Positions 32,995-56,689 are shown, numbered from the stretch's first letter. The stretch is DNA of 64,000 bases from Psammoneis japonica (GCA_008632985.1 QPGO01000050.1:310001-374000), one strand, 5' to 3'. Numbers and translations are program-made. Notes: generated by a model from the letters alone, not told the origin.

Positions 32995-34696
32995 GCTTGC
33001 GATCGCGGGAGTTTGATGCTGTTTTCTTCTTGCAGTTCTTTGCGCTGTACGCTCTGCTGTGCTGGCATTTTCAGTCGCCCATTGAAATGCAAGGGGAACA
33101 AACAAAGGTTTCCACCAAACCCACTGCGAATGGAACAGCTTCCGCCTCATCCAGCACTTTGTTTCAATGTCGTCAAGCAAAATGATTCTTGGCCAGTGCA
33201 TCAACAGGACTTGGTCGCATGGGAGAGGTCCCTTGAAGCCTTTGATGGGACAAAATGGTGTCTTCTGCCACGACCTTGTCCCTTGGAAACAAGTGGACGA
33301 TTGAATCTTCCTCTGCAAAACACGTCACATTTGCCTTTCAGACACCAAAAAAATGTTGCGGCGGCCAATGTCTCCAACAACGTGAATTGTCTCGCACCTG
33401 CAACTCGTGGTGAATGTCCACGGCGGAACAATTTTGTCATGACCGACATGACAACAAGTCGACATGATGCGCATTACACACCGAGGCGGTGCCGAGCCAG
33501 CCACACACTGCAACACTCACTTGATTTGCCGACCCAAACCAACCTTTCAATGTCGGGTTTGACGCGATTGTGTGCACAGCAACACGAAGCATCGTCGGTC
33601 TGGCATCGAACAAGTCAAGAGGCACCGCCACAATGTGTGGCAGAGAGTTTGCCACAATGGCTCCGAAGCTCTGTCAGAACGTCCCAGCCACCGCCATTGC
33701 CAAACAAAGACAGCGAACCGGCATTGTCACCCGGAATGTCGGCGCCACCACCACGCCACCAGACACTTGTTGCGACCGCCAGCCAACAATGATTGTTGCC
33801 ATCCAATGGAAAACATTTCAACCATGTGATACAAGTCAGACAATGCCATCATTCCAACGTGAAAGAGATGCGAAAATTCAAGCCTTCGGACAGCTAAACT
33901 TGGTACAGCGTTGAAAGAAGTCTCTGAGAGAGAAAGAGTAATCTTGTGACGCGTCCGCGGTCTTCTCGCGCACTCGCAGCAACAGGGAGTCTGAGAATGA
34001 AGTGCACTAAATCAACTACAATCGAATGTAGACATAGCCGATTTTGCTAGAACAAGAACGCTGACGATTGGGATTCAGACATGGAGAGCTCGTTAGAAAG
34101 TGAGAAGGAATAAATGTACTCTGACTAAGACAATAGTTTTTCCGTACCAAAGAAGCTCGACGCAAGAAAGAGAGCTCCTGTGATCAAGGCATCCGTTCCG
34201 GCCAAAACAAGCTGACCTTGCGATGTCGAAGCAACCTACCAATGCCGATCCAGGACCTGCGCAGTCTGCAAATGATGGGATCTCCTGCGTCAACTAATTT
34301 GAGCAAGAAGAGTCCTTCAAAAGTGACTATCGAAGGTAGCGACTTCTCGCTCTGACGGAGACTTCCCCAAATTTTGCAGCGAAAAATGTGCGCCGTCATC
34401 GGTTCCCCCCGCGAGAAAGAAAGCCGCAGCAAAGATGGCGCCAGGAACCTTTGATGGAAGGCGGTTGTGTATCGCTCGAGTGACGATAGCAACGATTCTG
34501 GCCCTTCGGCAAGTCACTCGGATTCGTTGCCTGTCTCCTAATTAAATACCAGCATCTCGTGTTAGGGCCGGGCGCGGTCGACGGTGATTTATGCCTACAG
34601 TGTGGACATTGATAGCGTTGCCTCTGATTTTGAACGCATGGGATGACAACAATTAGTTCAGGAACACAAAGACCGACGACACGCACGAGAGATACT

Positions 34697-35495
34697 CAGC
34701 ATTTATATTCAGCATGTCGCTTGTAGCTACTTTGCCGCTCAAATCATTGTTGACTGGTTAGGGAGGGCAGTGTAGCCTTGGATGATTGAGCGTGGAACGC
34801 ATTCATTTGACGTTGACTTGAAGACATTACTTCTGTAGACAAGCGCGTTGGCCCATTTGCGCGACGCATTCATGAGATCGCCCTCAGAAACTTGATTCTT
34901 TTCTTTATTTTACGGAAAGCTGTAGTATCTCTCCAACAGATTGTACGAGATTTTGGTAATTTACCCTTTAAACAGGAGGCCCGGTTCTATTTTCGCCTGT
35001 TTTATCATGTACAGTACAGTAACCGCGACTGCTTCAGATTTTGCCACTACCTCGCAGATAACCTATCATTGCGATGTCTTCCGCCTATGTCTTTCACTAC
35101 GTTAGAGGCATGAGGGAACACGCTCCAGCGACATTCAGCATTTACGTTCAGCATGTCGCTGGCTACTATGCCACCCAAGTCATTGTTGACTGGTCAGGAA
35201 GGGCAATGTAGGCTTGAATAATTGGGCGTGAATAATCGCATCCAATAGACGTTGTTGACAACCGCGTTGACCCATTTGCGCGGCGTATTCATGGGATCGC
35301 CCACAGAAACTTGATTCTTTTGTTAATTTTACGGAAAGATCTAGTAGCTCTCCAACAGAGTGCAAGACATTTTGGTAGTTTACCCTTTCAACAGGAGGGC
35401 CGGTTCTATCATCCATTCGCATGTATTATCATGTACTGTACAGTAACCGCGACTGCTTCAGATTGAGCCACTACCTCGTAGATAACCTATTATTG
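34697..35495. repeat. Old diverged ~440-bp tandem duplication
   Basis: cagcattta..ttcagcatgtcgct..tcattgttgactggt..gatcgccc.cagaaacttgattcttt..tacagtaaccgcgactgcttcagatt..ccactacctcg.agataaccta at ~34697-35068 and ~35136-35490. Confidence 0.85.
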
Positions 35496-35575
35496 CAATC
35501 TCGGTCCTTCAGATAAGATTGAAAGAGGATACCCTCGAGTAGCTACCCGCGAAGGTCTCCCAATAACAAAGACGA

Positions 35576-36241
35576 TCAAAACCGTATTTTGGAAATAGTA
35601 ATTGGAACACCTTTGAATCTTTCATCATCGGGTGGTCCATCGAGTCCGAAAATGACTCTCCAGTAAAAGCCGCTTCCATACCAACCCAGCATGATACAGG
35701 GAAGCCACTCTCGGTGGACGAGACGTGCGGCAGCGACGGCTCCAGCACCAAATCCAATCGGCGGTTCAAAGATTAGTGGCAATGAAGTGCACTTGATGAT
35801 ACCTCTCAACATGACACCGTACAGCCAAACTAAGCGCGGTGTGTAACCCATACCAACGATTTTCCTTCGAAGTTCTGCACGAGTCGTGCGCTGCTTGACA
35901 ATTGCTCGTTCCCCCTCGTGTCGGATGCGATTGACAAGATCGGGATCTCGCACGGCCACCCACGAATTTGAATAGATGGACACGGATGCACCGCTTGAAT
36001 AATACAAAAACACCCCAAGTCGAAAGAGTCGAGCGTGTTTGTTCCAAAATCGTAAAAGATGCTCCCTGATTCGCACATGTCGAGGTGGAGGTGGAGGCGG
36101 AGATGTCACAACCGTTTTTTGTGCTGAAAAGTTTCCTAGCCGGTAGGGCACCTTCACGGGAGAGGAGGGAACGTTACAGTTCACCTGATGGCTTAGAAGG
36201 ATGAGACTAGTAAGGAATATCCTTGGAAATGAGACTGTCAT
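35576..36241 (-). CDS. Hypothetical membrane protein with signal peptide
   Basis: Intact 221-aa ATG ORF, hydrophobic N-terminus and TM-like segments. Confidence 0.65.
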   Translation of the reverse strand: MTVSFPRIFLTSLILLSHQVNCNVPSSPVKVPYRLGNFSAQKTVVTSPPPPPPRHVRIREHLLRFWNKHARLFRLGVFLYYSSGASVSIYSNSWVAVRDPDLVNRIRHEGERAIVKQRTTRAELRRKIVGMGYTPRLVWLYGVMLRGIIKCTSLPLIFEPPIGFGAGAVAAARLVHREWLPCIMLGWYGSGFYWRVIFGLDGPPDDERFKGVPITISKIRF

Positions 36242-36669
36242 GCTGTCATCAAGCTCAGAAACGTAAGCATGCGAATAAGGAAAAGTAAGCCAAAGATACT
36301 GCCGTCATCCGCCGTCATCATGGCGTGCAACGTGCCTCGTGCCTCGCGGCTCGCACCTCGCACCGTGAGTTGCGAGGTCTGAGGTCCAGACAAAAACCAT
36401 TGCCTGTGAGGTCGGACCTCGCGAAAAAAGCATTGGACCTCGTGGCGAACTCGCTCGCTATCTTCGACTCGGACGACTAAAACCAACCACGCACGCGTGC
36501 CTTTTGTTTTTTGGCGATGCACCAACCTGGGGCCCTACCGTTTGTGTGAGAATGAAGATGACAGAAAATCCATCAACACCCTCCTGTCACAACACATCAC
36601 TAACATTGCAGAACAAAAAGACGGTTTGAAATACACGATTTGGAATTTGATCGACTTAGTAGCGTTGAG

Positions 36670-38139
36670 ATGAAGTGCTGGGTTCCTTTGGTTGCTCTCG
36701 CGACCAGCGCCTCAATCAAAAAGGCCTCCGGACTTGCTCTGCCAAGGGGAGGTGTCGGCAAGTTCGCGTTCCGGAAACAGCCAGTGTCATTGGTAGTACT
36801 AGGTGCCAACGGCGACATCCAGTCTGGATTCAACTACGAGGAAACCAGTGACTTCGATTATGGCTACACACAACGAAAATCAGATCTTAAGCCTTATGGT
36901 ACGTTTGTTCTCATTCATCTTTCTCACTGCTGGCCATGCATCAGTCACTCAAACCCACGTCTCCCTCTACTTGAAGATTCGTCTCTCAAAATGACAAGAG
37001 TACCCTACAAATGTACAAAGCCTCCTGGAGCTTCTGACATCATAAATCACATTCTCGAACAGTATCCAATTTCGCCTGAGGTAGAAGAAGCAGAACCATC
37101 GACTTCAAAACCACTCATCCCTTCTCATACGACTGTTCAAGCAGGGACCGCGATCATGAGGTACGTGACGTTGGGTTTTTGTGTTTCTAAATCTTTTTAC
37201 TTTGGTTTGCATTGCTAATTCTGACGAGTATCTTGTTGTCCTACCGTTAGACCTAGTAAAGGCCATGCCGCACAAGAAACGAGCAGGGACAAAAGCGAAG
37301 TCTCCAATGGCCAGAAGACCCTATCGAGTAGCAACCGAATTGTTCCAGCTCAAAACCATGCCACTGCAAATGACCCTGTGCCTCCATCAACGCAAGTTGA
37401 TATCGACGATGCAATAAGTGATGCGAGAAATAGAATACGATCGGAAATGATGGAGATTGAAGTCGAGCTTGGTCGCGCTGAAAAGGAGATGCTGTCAAAC
37501 CAAGAAGCAATCGAACATTTAAAAGCTGCAATGGATAGGCTTTATCAAAAGCAGGACGAGGTAGAAAATGATATTGCTTTGTTAGAACAAAGCTTATCGA
37601 GGAAACTTATGGAACTTAAGGAGATTGAGAGAGCGGTAGCACGTTCGAACGCCATGACACAAAGCAGAAATCAACAAAGTACTTCTATCAGAGACACCCC
37701 AAGTACATCCATTGCCATGGCGAATGAACCCATCGTAGCTGTATCGAGAGCGGATGAACCCACCATAGCTGTATCGAGAGCGGATGAACCATCTGACAGT
37801 AAGGAGCTCCAAAGTGAAGCATTGGAAGAGGAGTCGAGCGGTGAAGATACGCTCATTCTCGTGGACTACAGCGTTGAATCCTTGGATACTGTTGCGGATG
37901 ACCTCGTGCTGACTGACATTGATGCGCTTTGTGAGGTCAAGAGTAAGGCGTCTTGGGGGAGAATATTCAAGGCTATGAAGCAACGTGGTCTTGAGGAAAA
38001 TAAAGAATTCAAGTTGCACAATGGTGAGGACACAATGATACAAGTCGACACACGGGACATTGATATGCAAAAATGCCGGGAACGAGCGCAAAAGTATTTG
38101 AATATTCCCGGCACCCTCCCGCGCGCAAAAAGCGAATAA
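36670..38139 (+). CDS. Hypothetical multi-exon coiled-coil protein, possibly organelle targeted; exon boundaries approximate
   Basis: Signal-like N-terminus. gtacgt donors at ~36899 and ~37161. Terminal exon has a coiled coil and a 30-bp tandem repeat (ADEPTIAVSR) at ~37720-37790. Confidence 0.6.
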
Positions 38140-38761
38140 AGCAATACCTACCAGTTGGTCCAGGTTGTAGACGGGCGTGGATTATTGTGTCAGGCTTTCA
38201 TCTCCTTGTGTTAGTGTGATCGAATTTCGGGGGAATTCGGATGTCGAGGGGGAATCAATCAAGATAGTACGTTTGAGTCAATGCTCGTACTATTTTGGGG
38301 GGCAAATTCATTCAATAATGTGTGCAGTACTTCTTCCACGTACCCGGAAACAATCCTTCAACGGGAGTGGTGGCAACTGGTCCATTAGACTCGTGGTCGG
38401 ACGGAGTCTTGAGGAATGAGGCACACATTCTAAATATAGAGAAGATACTTAGTATTAACAACGCAACATTTCCAGAAGCATCAATGCCGCCGCGATAAAC
38501 CTTCCCTTTAGCGCTTTTGATAGGAATCTGGATCTCGTGATGACGTATAGGAGATGTGAAAGGCGCAGCAATCGGTAGGTACATCGAGCGTTTTTTGTGT
38601 TCAGAACCAAATCCGTTCGCTGTCAGCGGTTCCGTGATTCACATGAACCATGCTACCGGTATTTGTTATCAGTGGGAGTAATATATGCATCGATCAAATG
38701 TAGCTCTGCTCTTGTCGTCATAGCAAATCCAACAGTTTGACAGATCAATCTCGTCACGTCA

Positions 38762-39493
38762 TTACGCTTTGTCCAATTGCAGAGCATGATCAAGAAATTC
38801 CAGCACTTGTCCGACACGCAATGCCCGTGTTGGAAACAAATGCCCTTGATCGTGAATTTCCAGAACACCATTTCCACCGTGCTCACACAAGGCCCGGGTC
38901 CGCTCCACGGGTACCATGTCGTCTCGCTCTCCAGCAAAGTGAAATTTTGGAATACTTAAGCCCTGCTCGTATTGACTGTCACTTTGTGCAATTTCTCTAG
39001 CCACTTGAAATGCTTCCTTTGTGTATGGCGCACCCGACGTAACAATCGCACGAACCCCAGGCACAGTTCCACTCAAGGAAAGAGCTGTTGCCAAGGTCCC
39101 TCCTTGTGAAAAGCCGATAATGGCATCATAGTGCTCGCCATGCGTTTGTTGTTGAATGTAATCAAATGCCTCTCGAACATACAAGTGGCGACCGGTATCT
39201 TCGTCGCGTTTCCACCACGCACAAGAACATTGTGGTGCGTTGCTGGCGCTGTTTGACTCCAAGACAATCGGCCCGTCGATAAAGTGCAAGTCGTAGACAC
39301 GTTCGATTTTTCTTCGAGCTCCAGCAATTTTGTTGGAAAAGGTTGAAGCTGACTGCATGGCACCGTGTAAGCAAAGAATCCGCATCTTGTCGTTTGTTCG
39401 GGTTGCAGCCGCCGTCGAAGACAAGGCTTTGACGCTCATCATAAAGCGCAGCAACAAAAATACAGGAGCCAAGAGGGTCCTTGTCGGCAGCAT
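38762..39493 (-). CDS. FSH1/OVCA2-family serine hydrolase
   Basis: RILCLHG, GFSQG nucleophile motif, GERDDMVP, HDQGHLFP. Confidence 0.92.
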   Translation of the reverse strand: MLPTRTLLAPVFLLLRFMMSVKALSSTAAATRTNDKMRILCLHGAMQSASTFSNKIAGARRKIERVYDLHFIDGPIVLESNSASNAPQCSCAWWKRDEDTGRHLYVREAFDYIQQQTHGEHYDAIIGFSQGGTLATALSLSGTVPGVRAIVTSGAPYTKEAFQVAREIAQSDSQYEQGLSIPKFHFAGERDDMVPVERTRALCEHGGNGVLEIHDQGHLFPTRALRVGQVLEFLDHALQLDKA

Positions 39494-41344
39494 GGATTAG
39501 TACCGTATCAAATTCCAATCTCTTCACGTTAATGTCTCTCTGATTGAGGCAGCAGCATAGACTCATGATGAAGAGTGGAGCAGCAGCAGCAGGCCATGGC
39601 AGTCGCATTCAAAGTCAGATGCGTGTGAAAAATTTCAAAAATCCGGAGCTCGGCGGCAGTTTTTTTTTACGGCTACCGTAAAGCGTACGTAGGAATTAGT
39701 AACAATTTTGACAGTACCGAGTTCCCACGAATGTTCTACATACGGAATCATGGCAACAATTCAACACAAATACACAAAAGTGATAGTGTTGAGAAATTTA
39801 GCAACGGTCACGACCCACCAAAATCTCTCGGAAAGCGCTCGATTTTCGCTCACAACTCGTCGTCTCGCACGATGTGTTTGTTGTTCGCCAAGCAACGAAT
39901 GCCACGATCGCCGAGGATGGCTCACCCTTCCCCTGGAATAGAAAGCTTGCTCTTGTTTGGCGTTCCACAGCTCGTTTTGCTTGCTGACGTGTTGTCGCTA
40001 GGTGGCGTAGGTGTTGCCAGTTACGTCCGGAGGTCGGGGCAAATCGAATGCGTGTCTCGAGCCTTGAGTCCATGTTACTCCTTTCCATCAGCTGTCCCGA
40101 ATTACCAACCAGTAAAGCCCCGTCGACTGACCATTCCACTCGGCCAGCTGATGTGATGACCAACCCTTCGACGGAGCCCTCGGCATTTCCCTCTGCAGCA
40201 CCACGTGCAGCTTACGTGCTATCAAAAGCACCATCAGCAGAACCAAGCAATATTATTTGGAAGCACTTCGTGCTGTGACGATGAACGTGAACGATGCATT
40301 GTAAGATGTACAAGGAAAGAAAAGAGGATCAAACCAAAGATGCACTTCGATGGGATGCACCATTGCTAGGAGCCACTGGACCGAACCATTTCTTTCCTTA
40401 TCATTTTGCGACATCTGTTCTCGTAAGTTGTTTTCCGGCTGCACTTTTCCCACTCCATCCCCGTCACCTGAAGATATATACAAGCTTGAGCTCCATCTTC
40501 TGATGGCACTTTTGAGGCAATTTGATCCTACGCAACCGTTTTAATAGCCACTTTTGACATTGGCGTGTTTCAATTTTTTGAAACATGCTTTGAACCTTTA
40601 CGAAAGAGGTAGACATACTAAAAGTACAGCATAGCAATCTTTATTGGCGTGTTATTCATTCCGTACGTACGTCAATGGACTACGATGACGGCCGTAGCGC
40701 TTGTGATGTCATTGCATACTTTGATGTAATGGTTTCTGTTTTCGTACCACACTGCTCTTTCTCTTTCTGGTGGGGTCCATGCTGGGGTATTCGTTACAGT
40801 ATTCCCCAAGGCTTGTCATCGATGTGTGCTAGACTATTTTGGCTCTGATCGCCTGCATATTTTATGGATTCGTCGCGGTTACTTGTTGTTAGGGAGTTTC
40901 AAGTGTTCTGCCGAAATAGCGGAGCACTAGAGAGTAGAAGAACGCCGACGACAAGGCCTCTGGGGGTTTATCCGAGCCATCTCAATTCTAAATTAGCTAG
41001 CTACAATGCCTCTAGAGAGAAAAGAAAGATTCGAATTTTGTGAGTTTTTTATTTCTCTGACGGTACCAAGCTCCGTTTATCCTTTTTCTGAGGTGAATAA
41101 TCACCTGGGTCTCTCCAAACGGAGTTCTCGAGCTTGTCTTTGAAGTTGGCATTGAGCGTGTCAATCGATGCACACGTCAAGGTCGAGTAGAGGCTGTGAG
41201 GCGAATCGAATTGACGGCTATGTTGAATATATTTGGCTTGTTGCGTCGCAATCTTTCCTCCCGCTTTTCTTAATTCCTCAGCAAAAGCTCTTCTGAACCA
41301 CTCTTTCGGCTACTCATAGAGTTGCTACGAGAGCGGCAGCCGGC

Positions 41345-43000
41345 ACTGCTCATGTCCAGGTACCTTGAACACCGGTGCCGCCCAATACAGTCCAATGCAA
41401 CAACGTTCTGACTACATCTGTAAAGAAGTGGCTAGACGCATGTCCAACGAAGAGTGGCCACCAAAAAGGCCTTCCAACTATGCCAGTGTCCAAGCTAAGG
41501 CCGGCAACGATGTTTTTGCAAAGTTGTGAAGCAGTACAGCCAACGCTGAACCTTGCTTCAATCGCAGCCGCATCTTGAGAATCAACCAAACAATAGCCAA
41601 AGGCAATGAGATAAGCGGTTGGTTCCCTTTTTGTCCAAGTACAGGAAGCGGTGTTCTGCCCTTGTCGATGAGGGTCTGAATCTGGGCTTCTCCCCAAAAA
41701 GAGTACATGCGGGACAAACACACTCGTAACGCCAGTGAAGAAACCGGCCAGTATCCCAGAAACGGCAGCTCGAGCTGGTTGATGCCGAATGCCACACATT
41801 CGTAATAGTCTGCTAGACGTGTTCATATCCTTTCCGAGAGACTCAAGCTCTTGTTCCCAGCCCTTTGAGTAATAACCGAGCTCGAAAGTATCAACGGCGT
41901 GCCTCCGTCGTCAGCCTCTTTCATGTTGCGAAAGGATTCTCGAGCCCAGTGTTTCCATTCTCAACGTCTCCAACAACATTTATCTTTTCGCTTTCCCCCC
42001 GACCTCCTCGTGCTCGATCTCGCAGTCATGTGTGACATTAAACCAATCATGCACCGTGATTTTGGGTTTCGTGATGGCATCGCAGTAAATCACTCCAACA
42101 ACAGTGCCGACAACGCCGTAAACCATGGCATTGTAATATATATGGCTGGGCAACGCCGTGGCAAGAAATGGATAGTTGTAGCACCGGTAGCCGTTGACAA
42201 CATTCCTCAGAATCATGCGGTTCACCAAAACGGCGACAATAGACGCAACAGTGGCAGGTGGAAGCGCTTCAATGTACTGCAAGCCCATTTGATGGGGTAC
42301 TTCCAGCACAAAGAGTGCTCCCCGAAATGGGAAATCCGAAGAAGCCAGCTACTGCCGCCAACAACGCAGACGTCAAGTTCATGGCTCTTGCAACTGACTG
42401 TCGCTTCATGACGCCCAAGTAGGAGCCAGTCATGCCACCAGTCAAAACAAGGGGAAGATCGGGTCCCAAGGATAGACCAGACACCATTCCGGCAGTCGGC
42501 AGAACAAGAGATTGACAAAGGTATCAGAGTCATGAACTCCCTTAGACGGCAGCGATTTGATCCATTCATTTGCCCCGGAATAGGTTTCGGTGAAAATACG
42601 AAGATGTAAGACAGAATCTACAACGCGATGCCAGCAGAGAGTAGAAGTAGTCGGTTAGATGCGCCAAGCCAAATAGACAGAATAACAACCCACCGATGCA
42701 AAGCAAGACTTACCCCGCCTCCCGCCAAGGATTCATGTGCAAAGCCAAACGTAGTGCGGAAGACGGAAATGCCCATCCAAAGTCGGCAAAGAATCCCATC
42801 GTGTACCGGTACAGCTGCTCAGATGTCGTCGTGGGCCAACACTGACTTTTTTGAGTGCTTGAATCCGTAGCATTTCCAATCTTGTCTTTTGTGATTAACT
42901 GCCACATGGCGACTCTCGAGATGAATTCGACGACGCAAGTAGCATAGCGATTCGCAGACTTGAAACATGATAACGCCTACCTGTATTCATTCCTGTTGCA
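41345..43000 (-). pseudogene. CLC voltage-gated chloride channel family relic (stops and frameshifts)
   Basis: SLGPDLPLVLTGGMTGS, VAGFFGFPISG, LEVPHQMGLQYIEAL, FWGEAQIQTLIDKG, spread over different frames. Confidence 0.8.
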
Positions 43001-43640
43001 AGGTCAGTTGAAAAGATTTGACATGTCGCCAATATAATCGGGATTATTTGCTTGGAAGGTGTTGGCATTGGCTCTGTGTGGATGCCGGAGTTATTCACAG
43101 GAGAGCTCAGAGCTGAAGAGTTTGATGTTTGATTTCTCTTTTTGCCCGTCATCGTGAATTGCTGATACGCCAGGTTGTCCATAATGCTATCACTAATCAT
43201 CTTGATATGAATGATGCTCAAATTCTAATTGCTACTGCTATTGTCGCCGCTGCTGTCGCGCTTGCTCTTGTAATAATCGCGTTGTAGCTTTTCTTTAGAG
43301 GCGACAATCGCTTCAGGTTTCTCGTGAGAAAACAAATCGTGTCCTCGCTTCTCACTCTTTCCGTTCACAGGAATGGCACAAAGGCCAAGAAATATGCTAG
43401 ACGCCACAAATACTTGTGTGCGAGGTCCTCCCGGAAATCTTCTTGACTGCGCAGAAAGTAGATGAATGAGAGAATGGTGAGACGGACGAAAGAAGATAGA
43501 GCAGCGTCTCACAATCCTTCCAAGCAAAATAACTTACTCAATGCTTCAAGCCCCATATGTATCGGTTGCGTTGGTTGGTTGCTGTTTTAGGTAACAGCAT
43601 ACAGCATTGGGAGCGGGTGTGTTTTGTGGTTTGGTCATGG

Positions 43641-43684
43641 TACCGTATCAGGGACATAAATATATTTATGTCCCTGTACCGTAT
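43641..43684. mobile_element. 28-bp perfect palindrome flanked by 8-bp direct repeats (hAT-like micro-element or footprint)
   Basis: taccgtat-CAGGGACATAAATA|TATTTATGTCCCTG-taccgtat. Confidence 0.75.
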
Positions 43685-43719
43685 GTACCAATGGTGAACC
43701 TCCTCCATTCGTCTGTCTG

Positions 43720-46700
43720 CGCTGCCTGTGCACGCTAATCACGCGCAAGGCGCCAGCCTTCAGCTCTCCACCCGGAAAACCCCCCATCTTCCGAGCAAAC
43801 CCTCAGCACCACACCCTGCTTTCAACGCACGAGGAGTTTGGTTCTGCCACTTGTTTTCTCCAAAAACTTATGACAAGCAAAGTCATTTGTCACAGATTTG
43901 GCACAAATTCTTCATGTCAGCACAAAGTGCACAGACCGTGGTCAGCCAAGAACTCGTCGCTCAGATCACACCCCGGGAAAAGAAAGTGGCCGGAGCAAAT
44001 TCCTTGCATGTCAAAAGGGGTCAAGCAATGGGGGTTTGTTCAGATGACAGGGTTTGAGTGGGAGATGTGATCATTGAGACATGTCCCTCTGCCAAATTGT
44101 TTGGTGGCTGTGCCCCAGAAAGTTGGCCATGGCACTGCTGCTGCTCGCAATGCAGGGCTTTGATGCCCATTCTCAACATGAAGAGCCCATCACATTTGGC
44201 TTGATCTGGCACTCACACATGGACAAACTGGTGCCATCTTCCTGCTGAGGATGTTTCCTGGCACTTGTCTAAGAGGATGGGATGAGCGAGCCTTGCAGGC
44301 AAAGATGGGTTGCCCTCGCTGTCCTGATGCTGCTCACTCACTGCACTGACAAAGCTGCACACTTCAAAGCGCAGCTTTTGCCATTTGTCTGCCAGCCATG
44401 CTCTGCCATCATCACATGCAGGGCTGCCACAAATGGTGTGAGGCAATGATGTTGCTCAAGGCACGTGGATTGAAGTGTTTGTGTTTTTTCTTTTTTTCAC
44501 AGTCTGGCAGAAGAACCTGTTTTGTTGGTGCTTTGGACAAGCATGACTTGGCATGTTGGCATCAGCCACTCTTTCCCACCAGCCACAAACTGAGATGCCT
44601 CCATGGTCACCTTCTTCTCTTGACTTCTGTGAGCACTTGCAGCTGCACTCAGCAAAACATGCCATTGGGTTGGCTTTTGCTGGCAAATCTTTTTGTTGTG
44701 TTGCAAAATGACTGGCCTGCCATTCTGTTTGTGCCAAATAGAATGTTCTTGGGGAGATGAGCTTGTGCCAATGTCCACATCACACAATGCTTGGAAAACC
44801 CCTGCTCTGACACAACCACTGATTTTGTGTCTTCAGTTGTGAGCCTCTCCAAGATGCCCATGGATTTTTTGTCCACATCTGTCTTGAGTTTAATCTGGAC
44901 CAGCTGCAGCTGGGAATGTGGTCTGTGGTGATTTGTCTTTTGTCCAGGAGCCAAGATTGTCTGAAGTGTTAGCCCACCCCTCAGATTCTGTGCAAGTTGT
45001 CAACAAGCACACCCAACAAGCACACCCAACAAGCAGATGAGCAACCCCTGCTTTTTGCTGACTCTGCTGAAATCTGAGATTGGCCACTTTTGACCTCAAA
45101 TCCCTGGGAAATGATTGGTGCATGGCACCAGAGATGTGCACATCACATCATCAGATAACACAGCACTCTTGCCAACATGCCAAAGTTGCCAGAAATGGCT
45201 CACCTGGGCACTGTGGGTCTCTCAGATGAGAAGTTGCAGGAGATCCTTGGAGTGTTGTGTCAGCAAGTGGGGTCTGATGCCTGGCAAGAAATCTTGGTGC
45301 ATTTTTTGACCAGAGGCAGATTCTTTTTCATGAGCCCCATCTTGGTCATCTGGTGTGCAGCCATTTTTCACAGTGATTGAGCAGCGCTGTTTCAACCTCC
45401 TCTTTGTCTGGGTTTTGTTTGTCAGTGCCTGTCAGAACATTTTTGGGGCCAGAGGCAGTTTGTCAGGATAGACAAACAATGCTGCAGTGCAAGACACACT
45501 GATGATTGTGGACAATGTGGTGAATTTGCACTCACAACTTGGGTTGTGTTGTGGCTCTGGTTTGGTTCTCACTTTTTGGCTTCTGCACCTGGTTTGCATG
45601 GCAATGGTGGTCAATGGCAATGGGAACATGTTTGCAAACCACAAGGGGAGCTCAGGGTTGGTGAGACCATGTGAACATGCCAGTGGATGAGCCACAAAAC
45701 TCCAACAGCTGCAGAAGCCAAAAGGTCACTGCACAAGACACTGGATGACCTGTCATCAAACCAAGTTCTCACCTCAACAAGTCACAGATTTCAGTCCCAA
45801 GAAGTGCAAACATGAAGTCAAGACTCAATGGTTGGCATGGGAGAAATTTTCATTCCCATGAATGAAGATTCCCCAGCAACCTGACAGTGCCACAGCAGTT
45901 GACACAGGGCAGGCTTGGGAAATTTAAAGACTGAAGCCCAACTCCAAGGCTGCAATGCACAACACAGATGGTCACAGCATTGTCAACAATGTTCAACATC
46001 AACAGTTGACTTTGGTGCACAAAATTGAATTCACCAAGTGCAACATTTGCAGCCAAATGATGACAAAGCCTGGTTCCATCTCTGTCCACTGGGGGTCTGA
46101 CAATTTCATGCACAAATGCATGAAAGACTCTGACTCACAGGACCAAGTGTGACAGTTGGCAAGCCAAAATGCTCCAATGTTGGTCTGGAAAATGTGGGCA
46201 AGGACACAGCTGAGCACAGGAGCACACAGGATTTAAAAAAGTGGGTGCACAACACCGTTGCCAAGTTGGGGTGAAAGGCAGATGTTTGCATGGAAGCCAC
46301 AAAGAAGATTGGCCGCGAGCATGTTGGGACAATGTTTGGGCAGGAGATGCAGGTGCTGGTGTGTCTCTGAGGCAGGAGAGCATGCCAAGAAAAGAGCTGG
46401 AGCATCCATCAGGAGACACTGCACATCAGGAAGGACAAAGAAATCTGGGACAAGCAATGCAGTCAATCATGATGTGAAACAGAGTGAAATCTGCAAGATG
46501 CAGAAGGCAAGGCACTGAGCACAATTGTGGAACACAATGTGCAAAGGCCACTCATCACAAGATGATCATCAAAGGAGTGATGGAGTTCATGAGAGTCATG
46601 AAGGAGTGGAGCATGGTGGTGTTGTTGGAAATTCTCAAGTTGATCTTGTTTGATGAAAATGAGAAGATGTGCTTGCCAGAGGTGCACAAAGCATCTGTTG

Positions 46701-49700
46701 TCATCTGCACATGCACATTTGCACACTCATCATGCACACAAATGAAAAATGATGAGATGGTTGTTTGTCACCAGCCAGCAAGTTGATTGTGTGCATCAGG
46801 CAACAACATGCAATTCATGCACCACCTCTGGAACTCACATGTTCAGGTGGTCAGAGCTTGGAAACAGCTGGCACTCATTTGTCAAGACAAAGGAGAGGTG
46901 CACTTCAAGATTCTTGTTGTCACAACTGGCTGATGACACCTTCTGGAACAAGGAAAAAGACAAATTGTCAGCAGCAATGCTGATGGAAGGCAAAAAGGAA
47001 TGTCGGCAATGGGAGATGACAATTGCCCCAATTTGGCTGAGGAGGCACTGCAGGGATTGGACACGTGTGAAGCCAACAAGAAGCCCAAGGGCACAAGCTT
47101 TGTGCCAAATGAGAAAAAGCAGCTCAAGCACTGGGAATGCAATGAGGTTGGGCATGTGAAAATGGATTGCCCTGACATGATCATTTGTCAGCGGTGCAGA
47201 GTTGGATGATGTGGGCCAGCCCACAGCAATCAGCAGAGCAGTCAAAGTGGTGTTGGATGACATGGCTCCCAAGTGTCATCCTCCCATGCTTGATGCACAT
47301 GAGGCCAATCAATTGACAGCTCATGTGAAGGAGTGTGTTGAAACATTGGGGTTGGAGGCAGTTTTTGCAGGACAGACAGACAATTTTGCAGTGTAAGATG
47401 CACCAACAATTTTGGACAATGTGGTGAATTTGCACTCACAACTTGGGTTGGGTTGTGGGTCTGGTGTTCACTTTTTAGCTTCTGCACCCAGTTGACACCG
47501 GCAACAGTGGTTGGCAGCAATGGGAGCATGTTTGCAAACCACACGGTGAGTTTGTGGGGTGGTGAGACCAAAGCAACACATGCCAGTCGGCAAGCCACGA
47601 ACTCCAACAGTGCCATCTTCTTGCTGTTTCTCCAACAGCTCAGTTGCAATGAGGTGTGTTGAGGAGTCTCCAACATCTGGTTGATCATTTGCCATCTTCT
47701 GCAGTTTTTGTGACCAAGTCATTTTGCTGCACATTTGGCAAGGTCCTCCAGCCAAGCTGAGCAAGAGCAGCAGCCAGCGTTGCTCTGGTCTCTCAGAGGT
47801 GTCTTCAATGCTGAGTGCAGATGGCCCCAGCTTCCAGCTTGCTCCTGCATGGTTCTTGGCATGCTGCAGCCATGAGTTGTCTAGAGTGCAGCATGCCAAC
47901 TTTTTGTTGGAACCTTGTTCAAGCCCATCATTCCCAACACCCATGAGATTGTTGCCTTTGGTCTTTGCTCAGTGTCTGGCTCATGCTGTTGCCGTGCAAG
48001 GAGTGCTTGTTGTGAGTGTTGCATGCTGCAGAAATGCTGAGGTTGGAAAGTTCCTTTCAGCTGCTGAAACAAAGAGCTTGGGGGCGGTGCTGTTTGTGTT
48101 CAGCCATTCTCCAAAACTGACCAGTTTGGTCTGTGCAAAGTGCCCAATGTGTTTGTTCTGGTCTGCTCTGAAAACACTTTTGTTCTTGTGATCCTCATCT
48201 TTTCTGGAAATCTGTTGACCTTCTGGAGCACAGCTTGGAGAATTGAGCAAGGTTTGTCAATGGCTTGGGGGGGGGGGGGTGTAAACAGCTTGGGGGGGCA
48301 CAGTCTTTGTGAAATTTGGCATTGCTGCTGTGGACCAGCAAGATGACCCCTGTTCTTTGTCTTCCTCAGTGGTTGCCTCTCTGCTCTGAGAGACCATGCA
48401 GTTGCCTGCTGCAGCTCCTCTCTGCATGGGCCACTTGCCCTCACCCCTGCCAAGTCCTGCAGCTGAACAGCTTGAGCAGACTCAACGCTGTTTTGTGGAT
48501 GGGGGTTGCAACTCTCCACTCTCCTCCCTGCACAACATGGCAACAGTGCTGGAAACAATCTGCCTTTCGCTGAGGTCTCATTGCCATCATTTGTTCTGTG
48601 CCCTGGATGGGCACATTGTTTGTCAAATGTCATGGCATCATTGTTGGCTGTTTTGTTGTTGGGGGGAAGTTGGCTTGACATTCTCATGATCTTGCATCTC
48701 CTTGTTGCTGAGACAAAGGGCTGAAACTTGCTGTCTTTGGAAGGTTCTTCAGAGCCACTGGAGCTCCAAGAGGTGGGCAAGTTGGAAGAGGCACACTGGA
48801 AGAGCTGCAAGAGAAGCTTGGAGCAGATTGTGTGGAGCAAGACTTTTTGCCACATGCTGCTTTCTCCTGCATTGCCTGCCCTGGCCACAGCCTTGACATT
48901 CTTTTCTTCTTCTTGGGACTGTTTTCTTTCATTTTTTTGTTTTCCAGAAAATCATGGTGTCAGCCAGAGTGTTCACAACAATGAGTTGTTCTGTGAGCCA
49001 ATCATTGGATGACTTGTTGTGTTGTCCTGAGACACATCATGGTCACCCTGCCACCCCCATTGTCAAGAACCTCAAACACAATGTTTTTGGTTGCCACTCG
49101 CCTTGTTTGGCCAGAAGAGAAATTGCTGAGTGAGCTGACATTCATTGTCATCAGGCTGGGCATGGGTGGCCACCATCTTCTTTGCCTTGGCAGCATTCTT
49201 GGGATGAGTTTTGAGCTTGTCAACAATGCCCACTGCGTCGCTGCTGCTGTTTTGATGTTTTTCATTCATGTCTCAGCAGTCTGCACTGTTTTTTTGTTTT
49301 CAAGACCTTTTGAACTCCTTGCCATTGTGCTGCTTTGGATCAGATGTTTTTTGTTTGTTTTTTCTGAAGAGAGCATCAATCTTGCCTTGGGTGTCTGTCT
49401 TCTTGTGAGTGCCCTCCTGTGTGTTTGGCATTGCAGAGGGAGGCTCTGGGTGCTTTTCATGTCTGTCATGCGGCAAAAATTGGTGCTGGTGCTGTGTGAC
49501 AGTGTGGGGCTGCCAGCACCTCTTTCACACACTGATGCATCACATGCATGATGCTGGAAAAGTTTTTTGCTGATCCTCCACCCCACAGCATTTCTTTTTC
49601 ATCAGTTTTGTGTTGGACATGTCACCATTTGGTGTCACACCGTGCTCTCTTGTCCTCTGTTTGAGCTTTTCTGCTGTGCAGCACCACTTGTGACTGGAAG

Positions 49701-49900
49701 AGGTCTTCAAGTGCACTCTTGCTCGTCATTCTTGCCAGGAGCAAAGCCCTTGTTGGCTGCTTTCTTGTTCGACAGCCATTTTCAATTTGATCTTTCCTCA
49801 CATGTCTGGTTTCCTTGTCTTTCCTCATCTGGCTGAGAGGAACCCTGTGATCGAAAACCCTCCCCGACACTGCACGCACAGCAGACACGTGTCACACAAT
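43720..49900. mobile_element. TpA- and CpG-depleted hypermutated block 3 (unidentified host element carrying a nested LTR element)
   Basis: About 2 TA and about 5 CG counted in 47700-48700; Tyr-free ORFs. Confidence 0.75.
45430..47609 (+). mobile_element. Gag-only copia (CoDi-like) LTR retroelement: LTRs 45430-45707 and 47336-47609, TSD GTGCC
   Basis: TGT...AACA LTR pair. GTGCC at 45425-45429 and 47610-47614. Purine tract gaaggagtg before the 3' LTR. Gag remnant MGDDNCP..GTSFV with degenerate zinc knuckle WECNEVGHVKMDCP (~47130-47175). Confidence 0.9.
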
Positions 49901-50430
49901 GGATCATTGAGTCATGACCGGGTGAGTCATGATGATCGTCAGTCCCGAATCATCAGAATTCGCGCAAGCTGGCGTATGTACGTCCGGTCTTCTGGCGGCG
50001 TCAATAATTACTTCTTTGTCAGAACAACGTCACACCATAAATAAAAAATTCAAAATGATGCATTCTCGTCGAATCAGAATGGCCGACAGCCATCAATCTG
50101 GTTCAGTATACTGAAGCTCCTGTAGAAATCTACGTAGCAATGCTCCAACGCGACTGCGCTCGCTCCAACGACGTCGCTCCTTCCGCCACCGATCATCTGC
50201 GTGCATGCATTTTCGACGTTGGCGACATCGACACATATGATACACCGCATGCACACATCACAAACGAAGTGAATTCTGATTGTCTGACTCTGATTTCAAA
50301 CGGAAGATACACTTCTTGACTCAACCTTTCGAGTCAACAAGCTGTTTTGAAGTCAGGAAAGCAACTACGTTTGCTCACAATTCCCACACCTTCCGTTTCA
50401 ACAACAACGATTCAAGCATACCGTTTCACC

Positions 50431-51186
50431 ATGATGTCGGCATCAACCACAAGAACTTTCTCCATCATATCGCTCCTCTTGTCTTGCAGCTATTACGGAG
50501 TCGATTCGTTTGCTCCAATGTTTGCTACAAGACACTCTTCTGGTCGAAGAAATCAAGCTGCCTTTTCCTCTACGGCTACTACTCTGGAACCGGCCGCAGC
50601 AACGATGAGACACGCCGACATGAATACATCACGTCGGTATTCAGAAGACCGACAAATGCCTGCTCAACCTTTTGAAAAACGAATGAGAGATTTAGTGCAG
50701 GGCAAGCCTAAGAAGAGGACAGCCAACAGCAGAGCAAATCCGATGAGACCGCCCAATGTACAAGAAGTTCTGACTCTAGAAGAATACAAAAAGGCTGTTG
50801 CTGATGTGGACGACAAGCTCGTGGTTGTAAGGTTCTATGCAAAGTGGTGTAAGGCGTGCCGGGCTATTGCTCCCTACTTTTACAAAATGGCTAGAGAATA
50901 TGAGGACGTGGCTGTCTTTGTCGAGTTGCCAGTGACGGAGAACAATGCAAATGTTCATCAGGGACTCGGGGTGCCGACCATACCGTTTGGGCACATTTAC
51001 CACCCACAAGCTGGGCTTGTTGAAGAGCGGCTAATGGTAAGAAAGGCATTTCCTCGTTTTCTTCAAGTCTTCAAAACGTACGTCAACGGATCGTGTGAAC
51101 TGCTGTCGGACGGGCTCTGCTCCAACCCATATGCCGATGAGGCGTACGCAGCAAAGGTCGATGGAGAGAAGGACACAGCCATATAG
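50431..51186 (+). CDS. Thioredoxin-domain protein (atypical WCKAC), plastid targeted
   Basis: Signal peptide + SFAP; LVVVRFYAKWCKACRAIAP; LGVPTIPF. Confidence 0.9.
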   Translation: MMSASTTRTFSIISLLLSCSYYGVDSFAPMFATRHSSGRRNQAAFSSTATTLEPAAATMRHADMNTSRRYSEDRQMPAQPFEKRMRDLVQGKPKKRTANSRANPMRPPNVQEVLTLEEYKKAVADVDDKLVVVRFYAKWCKACRAIAPYFYKMAREYEDVAVFVELPVTENNANVHQGLGVPTIPFGHIYHPQAGLVEERLMVRKAFPRFLQVFKTYVNGSCELLSDGLCSNPYADEAYAAKVDGEKDTAI

Positions 51187-51484
51187 ATGCTAATATCACC
51201 TGCTAAGTAACAATAGAGCCAACTATATAGAGAAACAAAAACTGCTATTGATAAAAATCAATTGAAACTGTACTGTAGGTCGTTGTCTTCAACCATCGCG
51301 AGGACGAACAAAAGGGGCGGATGAGAACCAACAACTCGTCTCGAAGTTGAAGCCTTCCAGTCATCAGATTTCGTGACCAGCCTCTGAAATCGCAAGTTCG
51401 AATGAAACACGGTACTTAACTTACACACTAAAGCTACAACTCATCATATCTAAACAATACAGTACTTCATCATCCTCTGAAGGC

Positions 51485-53460
51485 CTACAATTCTTCCTTG
51501 ACACTTCCGTCATCAGAAGGGAAAGACGAATTATCCTTTGAGAACACTTCTGCCCAATTCACATCCACAATACCGCACAATTGGTTACCAGGTCGTTTGA
51601 TGGTGCTCTGAATGGCCATTCTCCTTCGATTAGCACCAGAGCATGGGACGAACTCCAGCTCGCACATGGCTTCTTCACAAGTGGCAGCCGTGATGGTATC
51701 CACTCCCACTTGAAAGTTGGCAAACGTGTTGATCATGTTGGACTGGATAAAGATAAAGGCGCAATGACCGCGTGCGCAGAAGATATCCTCGGTCCAACAT
51801 TCAGCGCACTTTCCCGAAAAGCCGATTGGTTCCTCTCCCAAACACTTAAGAACAGCTTCGCGTCCGCCCCAGAGCGACTTGCGAGCACACCTTGCAGATT
51901 CTTTCGCCAGGTACTCTCTCGTGGTGTATTGCAACCTAAGGTTATGCCAGTCAGAGCAGGCTCCACAAGCACCACAGTGAGCTATCTTGTATCCAGCATT
52001 ATGGGCAGCTTCCTTTGAATCAAAAGTGGAAATGTCGCCTCCGAGTTTGTCGAACGCGCAAACAGGCCCCACTTCCATGTGGCCGTACAGAGTCTCGTGG
52101 ACACTATGGAAATGTTCTCGGAACGACGTTCATTTGGGCAGTGGCGAATACGTTCACAATCGTCACAAAGAGGGAGAGGGCGCTGATGACACACAGAACG
52201 TACACGTCGGCTTTGGAAAAAATGACAAGCTGGGAGGGGGTAGACCACCTCATTTTGACAAGCTCCCAAGTTGATCGCTCGTGCTCTGGATCATAGTCTT
52301 CTTTATCCTCGTCCCCTTCCTCCTCTCTTCTTCTTCTTCTTCCTCCTCTTCTTCCTCGGAGATTTTTTCCATCGCCTCAAGTTCTTGAACCGTTTTGAAC
52401 ATGGTCGAACCGAATACGTGAGAGTAGATCAAGCTCATCGCCATTCGTTCCCTCTTATCGTGGACTGAAAAGCGTTTCTGAGACGCCATCCTTTTCTCCG
52501 TCTCGCGCCATTGACTGTAATGAGAAAAGAGATTGCCCAAAAAATAAGATGAGAAAGTCACCAACGCCAATCCCGACTCGTTCTGCCAAATCCTGGTGCC
52601 CCAGACTTGTTGTATGAAATGCCACCCATCAGCAAACATGAAGGAAGAAATCACCGCAAACGCAAAGGACATGGAAAGAGCAATACGAGCCTGCTGCTTT
52701 GCATTCCTTTTCCGCGAGAACTTGATGGCTCCCTCGATCACGAAGCCAATGAGGAAACCGACTACAGCAGATTTTGGCCTTCCACAAAATGGCAGCAATA
52801 AGCAATAGACAAAGAAAAAGTACTGACAGATACTCCAGGTCACATTAAACCGAAGAGCCTTCATGCCTCGGCCAACGTGCTTGATGCGCCATTGCTTATC
52901 GGGGCTGTAGTAAACACCTATCCACCGAGGAGTCTTTGTAGACACCACAAACCATAACCAAGCAGCTTCCAGTCGAGAAAGCCCTTCGAGTACCAGCTTC
53001 ATGCGCCAGTCAATATCTCTAATCAGATATGACACAATAGTTGCAGAAGCAGTGATCAAGCACATCATGATGGCGACAACCTTTAACGCCGTTCGATTCA
53101 CGGCCTTGCGTGCCAGCCGCTGCTTCCTCGCGTCAGTGCTTGTCCAACTCTCGTCAATTGCGCGATGGTATTCTCCAATCTCGGTACTCACGTCGAGCAA
53201 GACTAGGGTCGCTATGGCTGTCGATGCCCACGACAAATGGGGATTCTCGGGGAGCATGGGAATCGAGCTCGTCATGGTGGTTGCAATCTACCGGAATTGA
53301 GAATGCTTAAAGACTGCGGGAACTTCGCCATGATATGTATGTTCTGATGGATCTTCAAAGACGCTGGAGGGGTGCGCGTTGCTTTGCTGGATGCGGGGGA
53401 GTTCGGAGCTCGCGTTGTCTGACGTCAACCTCCGCACTCCGCACTCAGAAGGAATTCTTA
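51485..53460 (-). pseudogene. Multi-TM membrane protein with Cys-rich C-terminal domain; frameshifts ~52110-52290, in-frame stop ~53288, 5' end abuts a TE block
   Basis: 341-aa TM-rich ORF plus 197-aa Cys-rich ORF (IAHCGACGACS..CSGANRRR) joined across frames. Confidence 0.65.
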
Positions 53461-55345: not shown

Positions 55346-56353
55346 CTAGGATCCGTACTTCTCGTCGTCCCCTGGCATGCCAAACTTGCTGCCATCAAGG
55401 ACTTCCATAGTGCCAAGTAAGTCACTCCAGCGCGGTTGTCCAGTTGCACGACGCAAGACGCGTCCATTCTTTTTCAAAATAATATTGAATCCTTTTGAAA
55501 TAACATCGAATCCTTGGCCTGTTGCAGTTTCTACTTCGGATTTCAAGCAGTCGGCCCACTGGTTGTTCCCTCGCGGGAAAGCAATAACTTTACTTGAGCG
55601 ATCGACATCAAAGTTACGGTCTGTATCTTCCGAAACCGTGGTCGCCCAAGCCGATGCCGTGTCACCAACAGTCGTGCCGTCAGCTTCGAGTAAAACGGGG
55701 ACGACAATCATGTCTGCTGCGGCGATAGCGGATGGGATGTTGTTCTCATCTACCAGTTGGTCAGCATTGAGGCTGCGGCACAGACTCGAGATGTATTCTT
55801 TTCCTCCTGCTGCTATTAGGACACGCGAATTCCGCCGATAGTCTTTCAATGTAGCTGCCTTCACCGTTGTGTCGGCTGGGGACACGACAAGTGATGCAAG
55901 CGCACCACCTTTGGCAATACGCGCCAAGTTTGCTTCTCCTGCTTTCCAGTCTCTAAAAGTGATGAATCCACAGAGCGCCACAGCCCCAATATTGATTGCG
56001 CAAGATTGGAGAGCTTCATCCAAGGGTGGTGCGTCAGACCATCCGCCAGTGTAAGCCTTAATTGTGCTCAACAACGAAAAATACAGTGCCACAAACGCAG
56101 AAATCGTTGAGAAACCAAAAAAGTAAAGCCTCACAGTCCGGAAAGGCGATTCCACCTCCTCTCGAAGACGTTGTTTCACTGTGTATCCACCAAACTTCTT
56201 TTCGAGACCGTCGTCATCGGACATGAGAAGAGGGCTGACGCTGGTCCTAGACCTGCTCAAATTCGGACTACTTCTGGGGGAGTGCCGAATGGCGCGAGGC
56301 GCAAACGGCGCTGCTAATCCAAAAGACAGCGCCAACAAACCCAAGACTCTCAT
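55346..56353 (-). CDS. LPA1: LOW PSII ACCUMULATION 1-like (DUF3493) plastid protein
   Basis: Signal + APFAP; RLREEVESPFRTVRLYFF; LKDYRRNSRVLIAAG; LKKNGRVLRRATGQPRW. Confidence 0.85.
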   Translation of the reverse strand: MRVLGLLALSFGLAAPFAPRAIRHSPRSSPNLSRSRTSVSPLLMSDDDGLEKKFGGYTVKQRLREEVESPFRTVRLYFFGFSTISAFVALYFSLLSTIKAYTGGWSDAPPLDEALQSCAINIGAVALCGFITFRDWKAGEANLARIAKGGALASLVVSPADTTVKAATLKDYRRNSRVLIAAGGKEYISSLCRSLNADQLVDENNIPSAIAAADMIVVPVLLEADGTTVGDTASAWATTVSEDTDRNFDVDRSSKVIAFPRGNNQWADCLKSEVETATGQGFDVISKGFNIILKKNGRVLRRATGQPRWSDLLGTMEVLDGSKFGMPGDDEKYGS

Positions 56354-56689
56354 CGCTTGATTTTGATATGTTTCAGCGGGGGATCATGAGTATTGAGCAC
56401 CACCGGTGTAGAGGAGGGAACAACTCATTGTTACACGTTTTACAGTACGTTTCACACAGTTCGCACACTCAGTTTCATCGTGTGACGTGTTATGATCCTT
56501 GATCCTTGCTGCGTGGAAAAACGTCCTGACTTATTGTGGCTTCCGCTTCCTGTACGTTGGCGGCAAAGAAATCTTGGAGTTCGGAGCTCGCAATGCTCGT
56601 ACGGTGTGTTTGACTGACGTGTTAGAATGGAGTAGACTCTACCAGCAGTGGCTCTAGCTGCTAGAGTGGTTGTTAGTTGTAGTTCGTTC

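Follow-up and report, generated by a model that had tools for sequence, protein, structure and literature searches.

In Neurospora and other fungi, repeat-induced point mutation (RIP) changes C:G to T:A mainly at CpA, by which TpA and many stop codons are created. In methylated transposons, CpG decay by deamination of 5-methylcytosine leaves TG and CA as its products. At the RNA level, adenosine deaminases acting on RNA (ADAR) change A to G, by way of inosine, on double-stranded RNA, with a preference for a 5' U/T that is not strictly dinucleotide-specific. The closest described system is that of the alga Bigelowiella natans. According to the accessible part of a recent preprint, integrated DNA of nucleocytoplasmic large DNA viruses (NCLDV) and virophages is hypermutated in this species, TpA becoming TpG or CpA by strand; of the 231 mutations that mutation-accumulation lines gained in two integrated viral regions, 230 were A to G or T to C, all at TpA (Mettrop et al., bioRxiv 10.64898/2026.01.13.699255). 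The same part states that TpA in the NCLDV region is merely 1.8-fold below its genome frequency, and that reverse transcriptase and DDE endonuclease domains are over-represented in TpA-poor coding sequences rich in CpA and TpG (10.64898/2026.01.13.699255). The present analysis concerns a window of 64,000 nucleotides from Psammoneis japonica (GCA_008632985.1, QPGO01000050.1:310001-374000), in which a broken gag remnant of a copia-type retrotransposon, identified by homology, carries Cys and His codons where its relatives have Tyr. All positions are counted from the first base of the window. Two features are central to the argument:

43870..49975, no strand: TA-free block with the gag remnant inside, from counts of TA, CpG and TG/CA
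46194..47176, plus strand: broken copia-type gag remnant, 262 codons aligned, profile columns 0-309 of a 12-member family

Very probably, a copia-type long terminal repeat (LTR) retrotransposon left its dead gag gene at 46194-47176, in a 6.1-kb block stripped of nearly all TA, a judgement made jointly with the reading that a TpA mutator did the stripping. The favoured form of that reading is a TpA-specific A:T-to-G:C mutator that acts at the DNA level, after integration, and is targeted to domains.

The 6106 bases of the block contain 12 TA, against 403 expected from their base composition. TA (observed/expected ratio, o/e, 0.03) and CpG (o/e 0.12) are the sole depleted dinucleotides, TG (o/e 1.73) and CA (o/e 1.99) are in excess, and AA, AT and TT stand at normal frequency (o/e 1.18, 0.84 and 1.19). 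The GC content of the block is 0.484, compared to 0.476 in TA-normal flanking DNA. Within the interval 46540-47180, the counts are TA 0, CG 2, TG 79 and CA 78. The earlier note had remarked that the gag has no Tyr, and indeed the reading path through the remnant has none in 326 codons; however, this is not specific to gag. In each of the six frames of 44000-49999, with about 2000 codons apiece, only 0-4 Tyr occur, with elevated Cys (5.7-6.9%) and His (4.7-5.5%) throughout. Tyr is absent from all six frames because TA is nearly gone from the whole block. Its absence is therefore uninformative without alignment to relatives, and by itself restates the nucleotide-level observation.

The plus-strand open reading frame (ORF) 47000-47209 reads MSAMGDDNCPNLAEEALQGLDTCEANKKPKGTSFVPNEKKQLKHWECNEVGHVKMDCP... 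and holds both peptide strings on which the earlier note was built, MGDDNCP and LDTCEAN. The frame 46478-47206, with X at its three TGA codons, served as the query of a phmmer search against 1.84 billion representatives. Four matches were returned; the best was a protein of 343 aa (P0002, E 4e-12), and the other three covered the zinc knuckle alone or repeats. P0002 has 11 further full-length relatives with 39-59% identity, most of them with a zf-CCHC domain, and the 12 closest relatives are all stand-alone proteins of 323-386 aa on short contigs. A hidden Markov model (HMM) of this 12-member family matched frames of the window at E 6.6e-14 (profile 4-126) and E 9.8e-9 (profile 247-312), with two shorter pieces between these. 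A search for longer family forms gave P0018 (1758 aa, E 1.7e-15), in which zf-CCHC (377-392), an integrase SH3-like domain (SH3_retrovirus, 822-873) and RVT_2 (1210-1435) stand in copia order; the family aligns to its residues 35-401 (hhalign probability 98.7%, E 2.6e-16). The remnant is 41% identical to P0002 and 40% to P0006. Additionally, language-model look-alikes of P0002 are zf-CCHC clusters named "hypothetical protein" whose commonest known phylum is Bacillariophyta, a lead only.

By Pfam, the 86 stop-to-stop ORFs of 43900-50100 gave nothing above the cut-offs, the best relevant score being that of zf-CCHC (E 0.062; 13.9 bits, cut-off 20.8). Pfam alone is therefore unable to confirm gag. 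The same scan found nothing above the cut-offs in 130 of the 153 ORFs of the other TA-poor blocks. For pol, tblastn of P0018 against the window reached at best E 0.27, and the 86 block ORFs contain no Pfam pol domain. By homology through phmmer and the family HMM, then, the earlier designation of a gag remnant stands, and its start is moved from 46540 to 46194.

The informative comparison is made at columns where the family has Tyr. The remnant was aligned by a protein-profile-to-DNA method allowing frame changes, with BLOSUM62 averaged over the 12 relatives, no bonus for Tyr/Cys or Tyr/His pairs and a lenient frameshift penalty. A column was classed as Tyr-majority if 7 or more of the 12 relatives carry Tyr there, and the 237 aligned columns without any Tyr formed the control. 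The family has 18 Tyr-majority columns, two of which are deleted in the window. At the 16 that are aligned, the window has Cys 6 times, His 4, Phe 4, Met and Ser once each, and Tyr never. Cys or His is found at 10 of these 16 columns and at 9 of the 237 controls (one-sided Fisher p 2.4e-9). The enrichment persists when the threshold is raised to 10 or more relatives with Tyr (8 of 11 columns, p 1.1e-8) and to all 12 (6 of 7, p 1.2e-7). The ten codons are as follows:

46248..46250, plus strand: CAC (His), Tyr in 12 of 12; HMM and alignment
46287..46289, plus strand: TGC (Cys), Tyr in 12 of 12; HMM and alignment
46320..46322, plus strand: CAT (His), Tyr in 12 of 12; HMM and alignment
46403..46405, plus strand: CAT (His), Tyr in 9 of 12, PEYP in the family and LEHP here, in a frame-shifted stretch; alignment and tblastn match to P0002
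46458..46460, plus strand: TGC (Cys), Tyr in 12 of 12; HMM and alignment
46492..46494, plus strand: TGC (Cys), Tyr in 12 of 12, less secure; frameshift-aware alignment only
46670..46672, plus strand: TGC (Cys), Tyr in 10 of 12; HMM and alignment
46901..46903, plus strand: CAC (His), Tyr in 11 of 12, weak local alignment; frameshift-aware alignment
47024..47026, plus strand: TGC (Cys) of MGDDNCP, Tyr in 12 of 12, the YP motif LGxxxYP; HMM and alignment
47066..47068, plus strand: TGT (Cys) of LDTCEAN, Tyr in 7 of 12 and also in P0018; HMM and alignment

Eight Tyr columns are placed identically by the in-frame HMMER alignments, and these read Cys or His at seven and Phe at one. Column 66 is covered by the tblastn match to P0002 as well, and columns 92 and 175 have the frameshift-aware alignment as their sole support. 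At six of the ten sites, Tyr is found in the distant copia polyprotein P0018. The tally can also be made from the side of the window. Its 10 aligned Cys fall on Tyr columns (6), invariant Cys columns (3) and an Arg column (1, TGT at 46880). Its 9 aligned His fall on Tyr columns (4), the invariant knuckle His, an Arg/Lys/Gln column (CAT at 46553), a His/Asn column, a variable column and the invariant first Cys of the knuckle. An alignment under a stricter penalty set the string MQFMHHLWN on the DYYKRF region; this placement was rejected, as HMMER and identity to P0006 favour QVVRAWKQL with QAVKAWKQL, and its two His residues are excluded from the tally.

The earlier note had proposed that Tyr codons were converted to Cys and His. 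The comparison it called for has now been made, and the relatives have Tyr at these sites, not Cys, His or Arg. The YP motif before the knuckle, which the earlier note ascribed to diatom CoDi gags, is likewise present in the 12-member family.

Tyr is encoded by TAT and TAC only. Because Tyr is TAY and is conserved in the 12 relatives and P0018, the ancestral codons at these columns held TA and no CpG. These columns now read TGY or CAY, each one transition from TAY; therefore, the direction of change was from TA to TG or CA. It was TA to TG at six sites (A to G on the coding strand) and TA to CA at four (T to C on the coding strand). The direction is read from protein outgroups; the earlier argument that Tyr codons, being free of CpG, fix it as TA loss is sustained by the ten codons. 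At 130 aligned columns, 9 or more of the 12 relatives agree; the remnant keeps the family residue at 70 of these and departs from it by one TA-loss step at 14, by one CpG-loss step at 7 and in some other way at 39. The 14 TA-loss steps comprise nine Tyr sites and five others, which are Val to Ala (GCA), Ile to Thr (ACA), Leu to Ser (TCA), Lys to Glu after T, and an initiator GTG after T. Enumeration of all codon contexts shows that the change of TA to TG or CA never makes a stop from a sense codon, and that it turns TAA and TAG into TGA, CAA, TGG or CAG.

A mechanism may be outlined from these results. Ancestral TAY became TGY by A to G on the coding strand, or CAY by T to C on the coding strand, which equals A to G on the other. 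Such A:T-to-G:C transitions, specific to TpA, struck both DNA strands about equally and ran to saturation. The process would work on already integrated DNA, as a mutator targeted to domains of repeated or silenced sequence, and its chemistry might be adenine deamination at TpA, as proposed for B. natans. Since it cannot create stops, elements would be disabled by missense only. Ordinary CpG decay and indels also acted on this gag copy.

The alternative that survives best, improbable as it is, places the change in RNA. The retroelement transcript would have undergone A-to-I editing by an ADAR-like activity favouring a 5' U before reverse transcription, and the element would have integrated already mutated. 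The element, as a retrotransposon, passes through RNA, and A to G after T resembles the neighbour preference of ADAR as summarised in the accessible part of the B. natans preprint (10.64898/2026.01.13.699255). However, editing of the sense RNA would yield Tyr to Cys only, and 4 of the 10 converted codons are His. The 6:4 split of Cys and His, together with the equal TG and CA counts in 46540-47180 (79 and 78), means that neither strand was spared, and this speaks against editing of a sense transcript before reverse transcription. Moreover, the TA-free state spans 6.1 kb, including sequence without detectable element protein. Further evidence is given by a direct repeat that flanks the gag remnant:

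45443..45708, plus strand: upstream copy, 78% identity to 47346-47610; repeat comparison
47346..47610, plus strand: downstream copy; repeat comparison

This repeat may be an LTR remnant. Its copies show different outcomes, TG in one and CA in the other, at 10 of 20 adjacent double mismatches, which indicates independent resolution of one ancestral dinucleotide after the copies separated. Outside gag, the TA-poor fragment 4349-4536 has no TA at all, in contrast to 12 in its TA-normal paralog at 40482-40668 (minus strand). Of the 39 mismatches between the two, 10 pair TA in the normal copy with TG or CA in its poor counterpart; the reverse pairing is never seen. It follows from this TA-normal paralog that some repeat copies are unmutated. 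The paralogs as a whole, 4349-4536 with 4829-4913 and 40001-40668 (minus strand), lie 36 kb apart at 78-87% identity.

Very improbable is the explanation by lineage-specific protein divergence, an alignment artefact or chance. It would draw on the low identity of even the nearest relative, on an alignment that depends in part on its own frameshift placement, and on the richness of every frame of the block in Cys and His. Such causes do not account for the concentration of Cys and His on Tyr-majority columns over Tyr-free ones, nor for their presence at seven of the eight columns on which HMMER agrees. Tyr/Cys pairs are scored negatively by BLOSUM62, so that the pairing was not favoured by the aligner. 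Additionally, the aligned columns contain 10-19 Tyr in each relative and, over 262 codons, not one in the remnant.

Even less credit can be given to CpG decay acting alone, by which the TG/CA excess, and Cys and His by way of Arg (CGY to TGY or CAY), would all be products of 5-methylcytosine deamination. This process did act on the gag copy, as seen in the low CpG of the block and in the Cys at 46880 and the His at 46553, on an Arg and an Arg/Lys/Gln column; one-step CpG losses make up 7 of the 60 differences at conserved columns. Yet TA is not removed by CpG decay, TAY contains no CpG, and the ten Cys and His on Tyr columns already contradict decay as the sole cause. TA is gone and much CpG retained in the blocks 2001-5000 (TA o/e 0.04-0.06, CpG o/e 0.61-0.77) and 31001-34000 (TA o/e 0.10-0.21, CpG o/e 0.63-0.87). 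Therefore, TA loss and CpG loss are separable processes. A general drive from AT to GC, such as GC-biased gene conversion, or selection against TA would share the net A:T-to-G:C direction and can be set aside with equal firmness, given normal AA, AT and TT, a GC content close to that of TA-normal DNA, and a dead gag copy in which codon-level selection is unlikely.

Several observations weigh against the favoured reading of a TpA-specific mutator. At conserved columns, 39 of the 60 differences are of neither the TA-loss nor the CpG-loss type; with the nearest relative only 41% identical, ordinary divergence makes up the larger part. Six Tyr-majority columns read Phe (TTY, 4), Met (1) or Ser (1), which TA loss cannot yield. 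Most simply these are older Tyr/Phe exchanges or alignment noise; the relatives carry Phe at three of the four Phe columns, and the fourth, column 176, is Tyr in all 12. Where all 12 relatives have the first Cys of the knuckle, the window has His (CAC, 47129-47131), a replacement that needs two base changes and that no single TA-loss or CpG-loss step explains. The calls at 46403, 46492 and 46901 hang on frame changes placed under the lenient frameshift penalty, and a stricter penalty altered the middle of the alignment. The sites at which the flanking repeats differ as TG and CA may stem from CG as well as from TA. Finally, the timing and the DNA-level mode are probable deductions drawn from one window and protein relatives.

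The remnant itself is heavily damaged. Its reading path has about eight frame changes, some of them insecure, and meets TGA twice, at 46272 and again at 46784. Deletions have removed profile columns 193-214, 229-241 and 274-282. Other features of its anatomy are the following:

46194..46196, plus strand: GTG on the family's initiator Met, with T before GTG; alignment
46272..46274, plus strand: in-frame TGA opposite a Lys/Arg-type column; frameshift-aware alignment
46679..46840, plus strand: insertion of 54 codons relative to the family, with the TGA at 46784 inside; HMM and frameshift-aware alignment
47129..47170, plus strand: degenerate zinc knuckle H-x2-C-x4-H-x4-C; Pfam zf-CCHC below cut-off, and alignment

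The initiator GTG is consistent with a change from T|ATG to T|GTG. The intact CCHC knuckle, C-x2-C-x4-H-x4-C, is not kept, as expected of a dead copy. It had been suggested that the process inactivates elements by missense and not by new stops. As the logic of the process this agrees with the codon enumeration; this copy also carries frame changes, the two TGA codons, the 54-codon insertion and the deletions, any of which may have preceded the missense changes. The sole TA remaining in the remnant belongs to a TTA Leu codon (46233-46235) on a family-invariant Leu column. Among the relatives, P0009 stands out: of the 17 columns at which 7 or more of the other 11 carry Tyr, it shows Cys or His at 5, compared to 0-2 for the other members. 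It may be a partly TpA-mutated copy from another record.

The window contains five TA-poor blocks among TA-normal stretches (TA o/e about 0.58) with ordinary host domains, and the loss of TA is confined to these blocks beside TA-normal genes. The TA-normal DNA at 5700-28500, 34300-43800 and 50300-53300 encodes a dynein heavy-chain lid, UbiA, ribosomal L29, RRM, FSH1 hydrolase and thioredoxin; DUF3493 (LPA1/Rep27-like) is found at 55349-56383, also in TA-normal DNA. This content fits the nuclear genome of a photosynthetic eukaryote. Among sequencing runs, a search listed one DNA run with this sequence, probably the source sample, and no RNA run. A selfish origin is established for the gag block only, and is suggested for the repeats in the blocks 1-5000 and 30001-34000. 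The TA-free zone of the gag block reaches beyond the CpG-poor zone on either side. On the left, TA ends at 43869, while CpG remains dense as far as about 43991 and becomes sparse only by some 44470; on the right, CpG regains its density at about 49641, and TA is absent until 49975. This right edge lies upstream of a thioredoxin-domain gene at 50320-51183. The stretch 31298-32994, within a TA-poor block, is a tandem array whose copies, 92-95% identical, recur about every 410 bases. The ORF 1347-1661 (plus strand), in another TA-poor block, weakly resembles Pfam APOBEC2 (E 0.0087; 16.5 bits, cut-off 26.8), which is probably due to chance.

Composition alone cannot give the direction of such a process, because an excess of TG and CA also results from CpG decay; conserved Tyr can. 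A Cys or His that stands on a Tyr column dates one event of TA to TG or TA to CA and resolves its strand, and the read-out as a whole shows that TA was ancestral, that both strands were hit and that conversion was complete. The gag remnant amounts to a clean proof of polarity, resolved by strand, for a rare mutational process whose signature was published for another alga. Unlike RIP or APOBEC, such a mutator makes no stops and erases TAA and TAG; therefore, mutated elements keep long open frames while losing function. Long open frames in dead elements matter for transposon annotation and gene prediction in genomes of this kind.

Compared to RIP, the process at this locus is likewise a two-strand, dinucleotide-context transition hypermutation, probably of repeated or selfish DNA, with neighbouring genes spared. 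Its direction is the opposite: TpA is depleted about 30-fold, local GC rises and no stops are created. Like ADAR, it changes A to G with a 5' T; unlike ADAR, it affects both DNA strands and flanks that do not belong to the element. With CpG decay it shares its products, but TAY codons are changed, TA is removed and the footprint in the window is distinct. ADAR hyper-editing, according to the accessible part of the B. natans preprint, is described for metazoan lineages (10.64898/2026.01.13.699255).

As to the target, the remnant resembles the Ty1/copia gag of the diatom LTR retrotransposons called CoDi, with which it shares a gag with a CCHC knuckle and homology to a polyprotein of copia order (Maumus et al. 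2009, PMC2806351). The CoDi grouping, as given in the accessible part of that paper, rests on phylogeny of pol and reverse transcriptase (PMC2806351). The gag remnant, having neither pol nor reverse transcriptase, is hence left unplaced among the CoDi groups. A literature search found no description of TpA loss in diatom transposons; the accessible parts of the CoDi paper (PMC2806351) and of a 2025 preprint on diatom transposable elements contain neither "dinucleotide" nor "hypermutation", and the text of the B. natans preprint is without "diatom" (10.64898/2026.01.13.699255).

The closest likeness is to B. natans. In both, A:T goes to G:C at TpA only and on both strands, with a matching gain of TpG and CpA. 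In B. natans the rate was measured directly, whereas here the process is saturated (TA o/e 0.03) and its direction is read from protein outgroups. CpG is also lost in the gag block, by a second process. The target here is a relic of an LTR retrotransposon, compared to integrated viral DNA in B. natans, and the host is apparently a different alga, since look-alike clusters of the gag family are mostly from Bacillariophyta. If the host is a diatom, the chlorarachniophyte process reported in 2026 is not the curiosity of one species. The broadest statement has about even chances of being right. It is that a probable diatom nuclear genome has a two-strand, TpA-specific A:T-to-G:C DNA mutator, aimed at retrotransposon and repeat domains and saturating, which acts by missense only, as in the change of every Tyr to Cys or His, and is the mirror image of fungal RIP. 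It would be of the same kind as that of the rhizarian Bigelowiella, implying that an undescribed genome defence of the DNA adenine-deaminase type is widespread in the stramenopile, alveolate and rhizarian (SAR) lineages.

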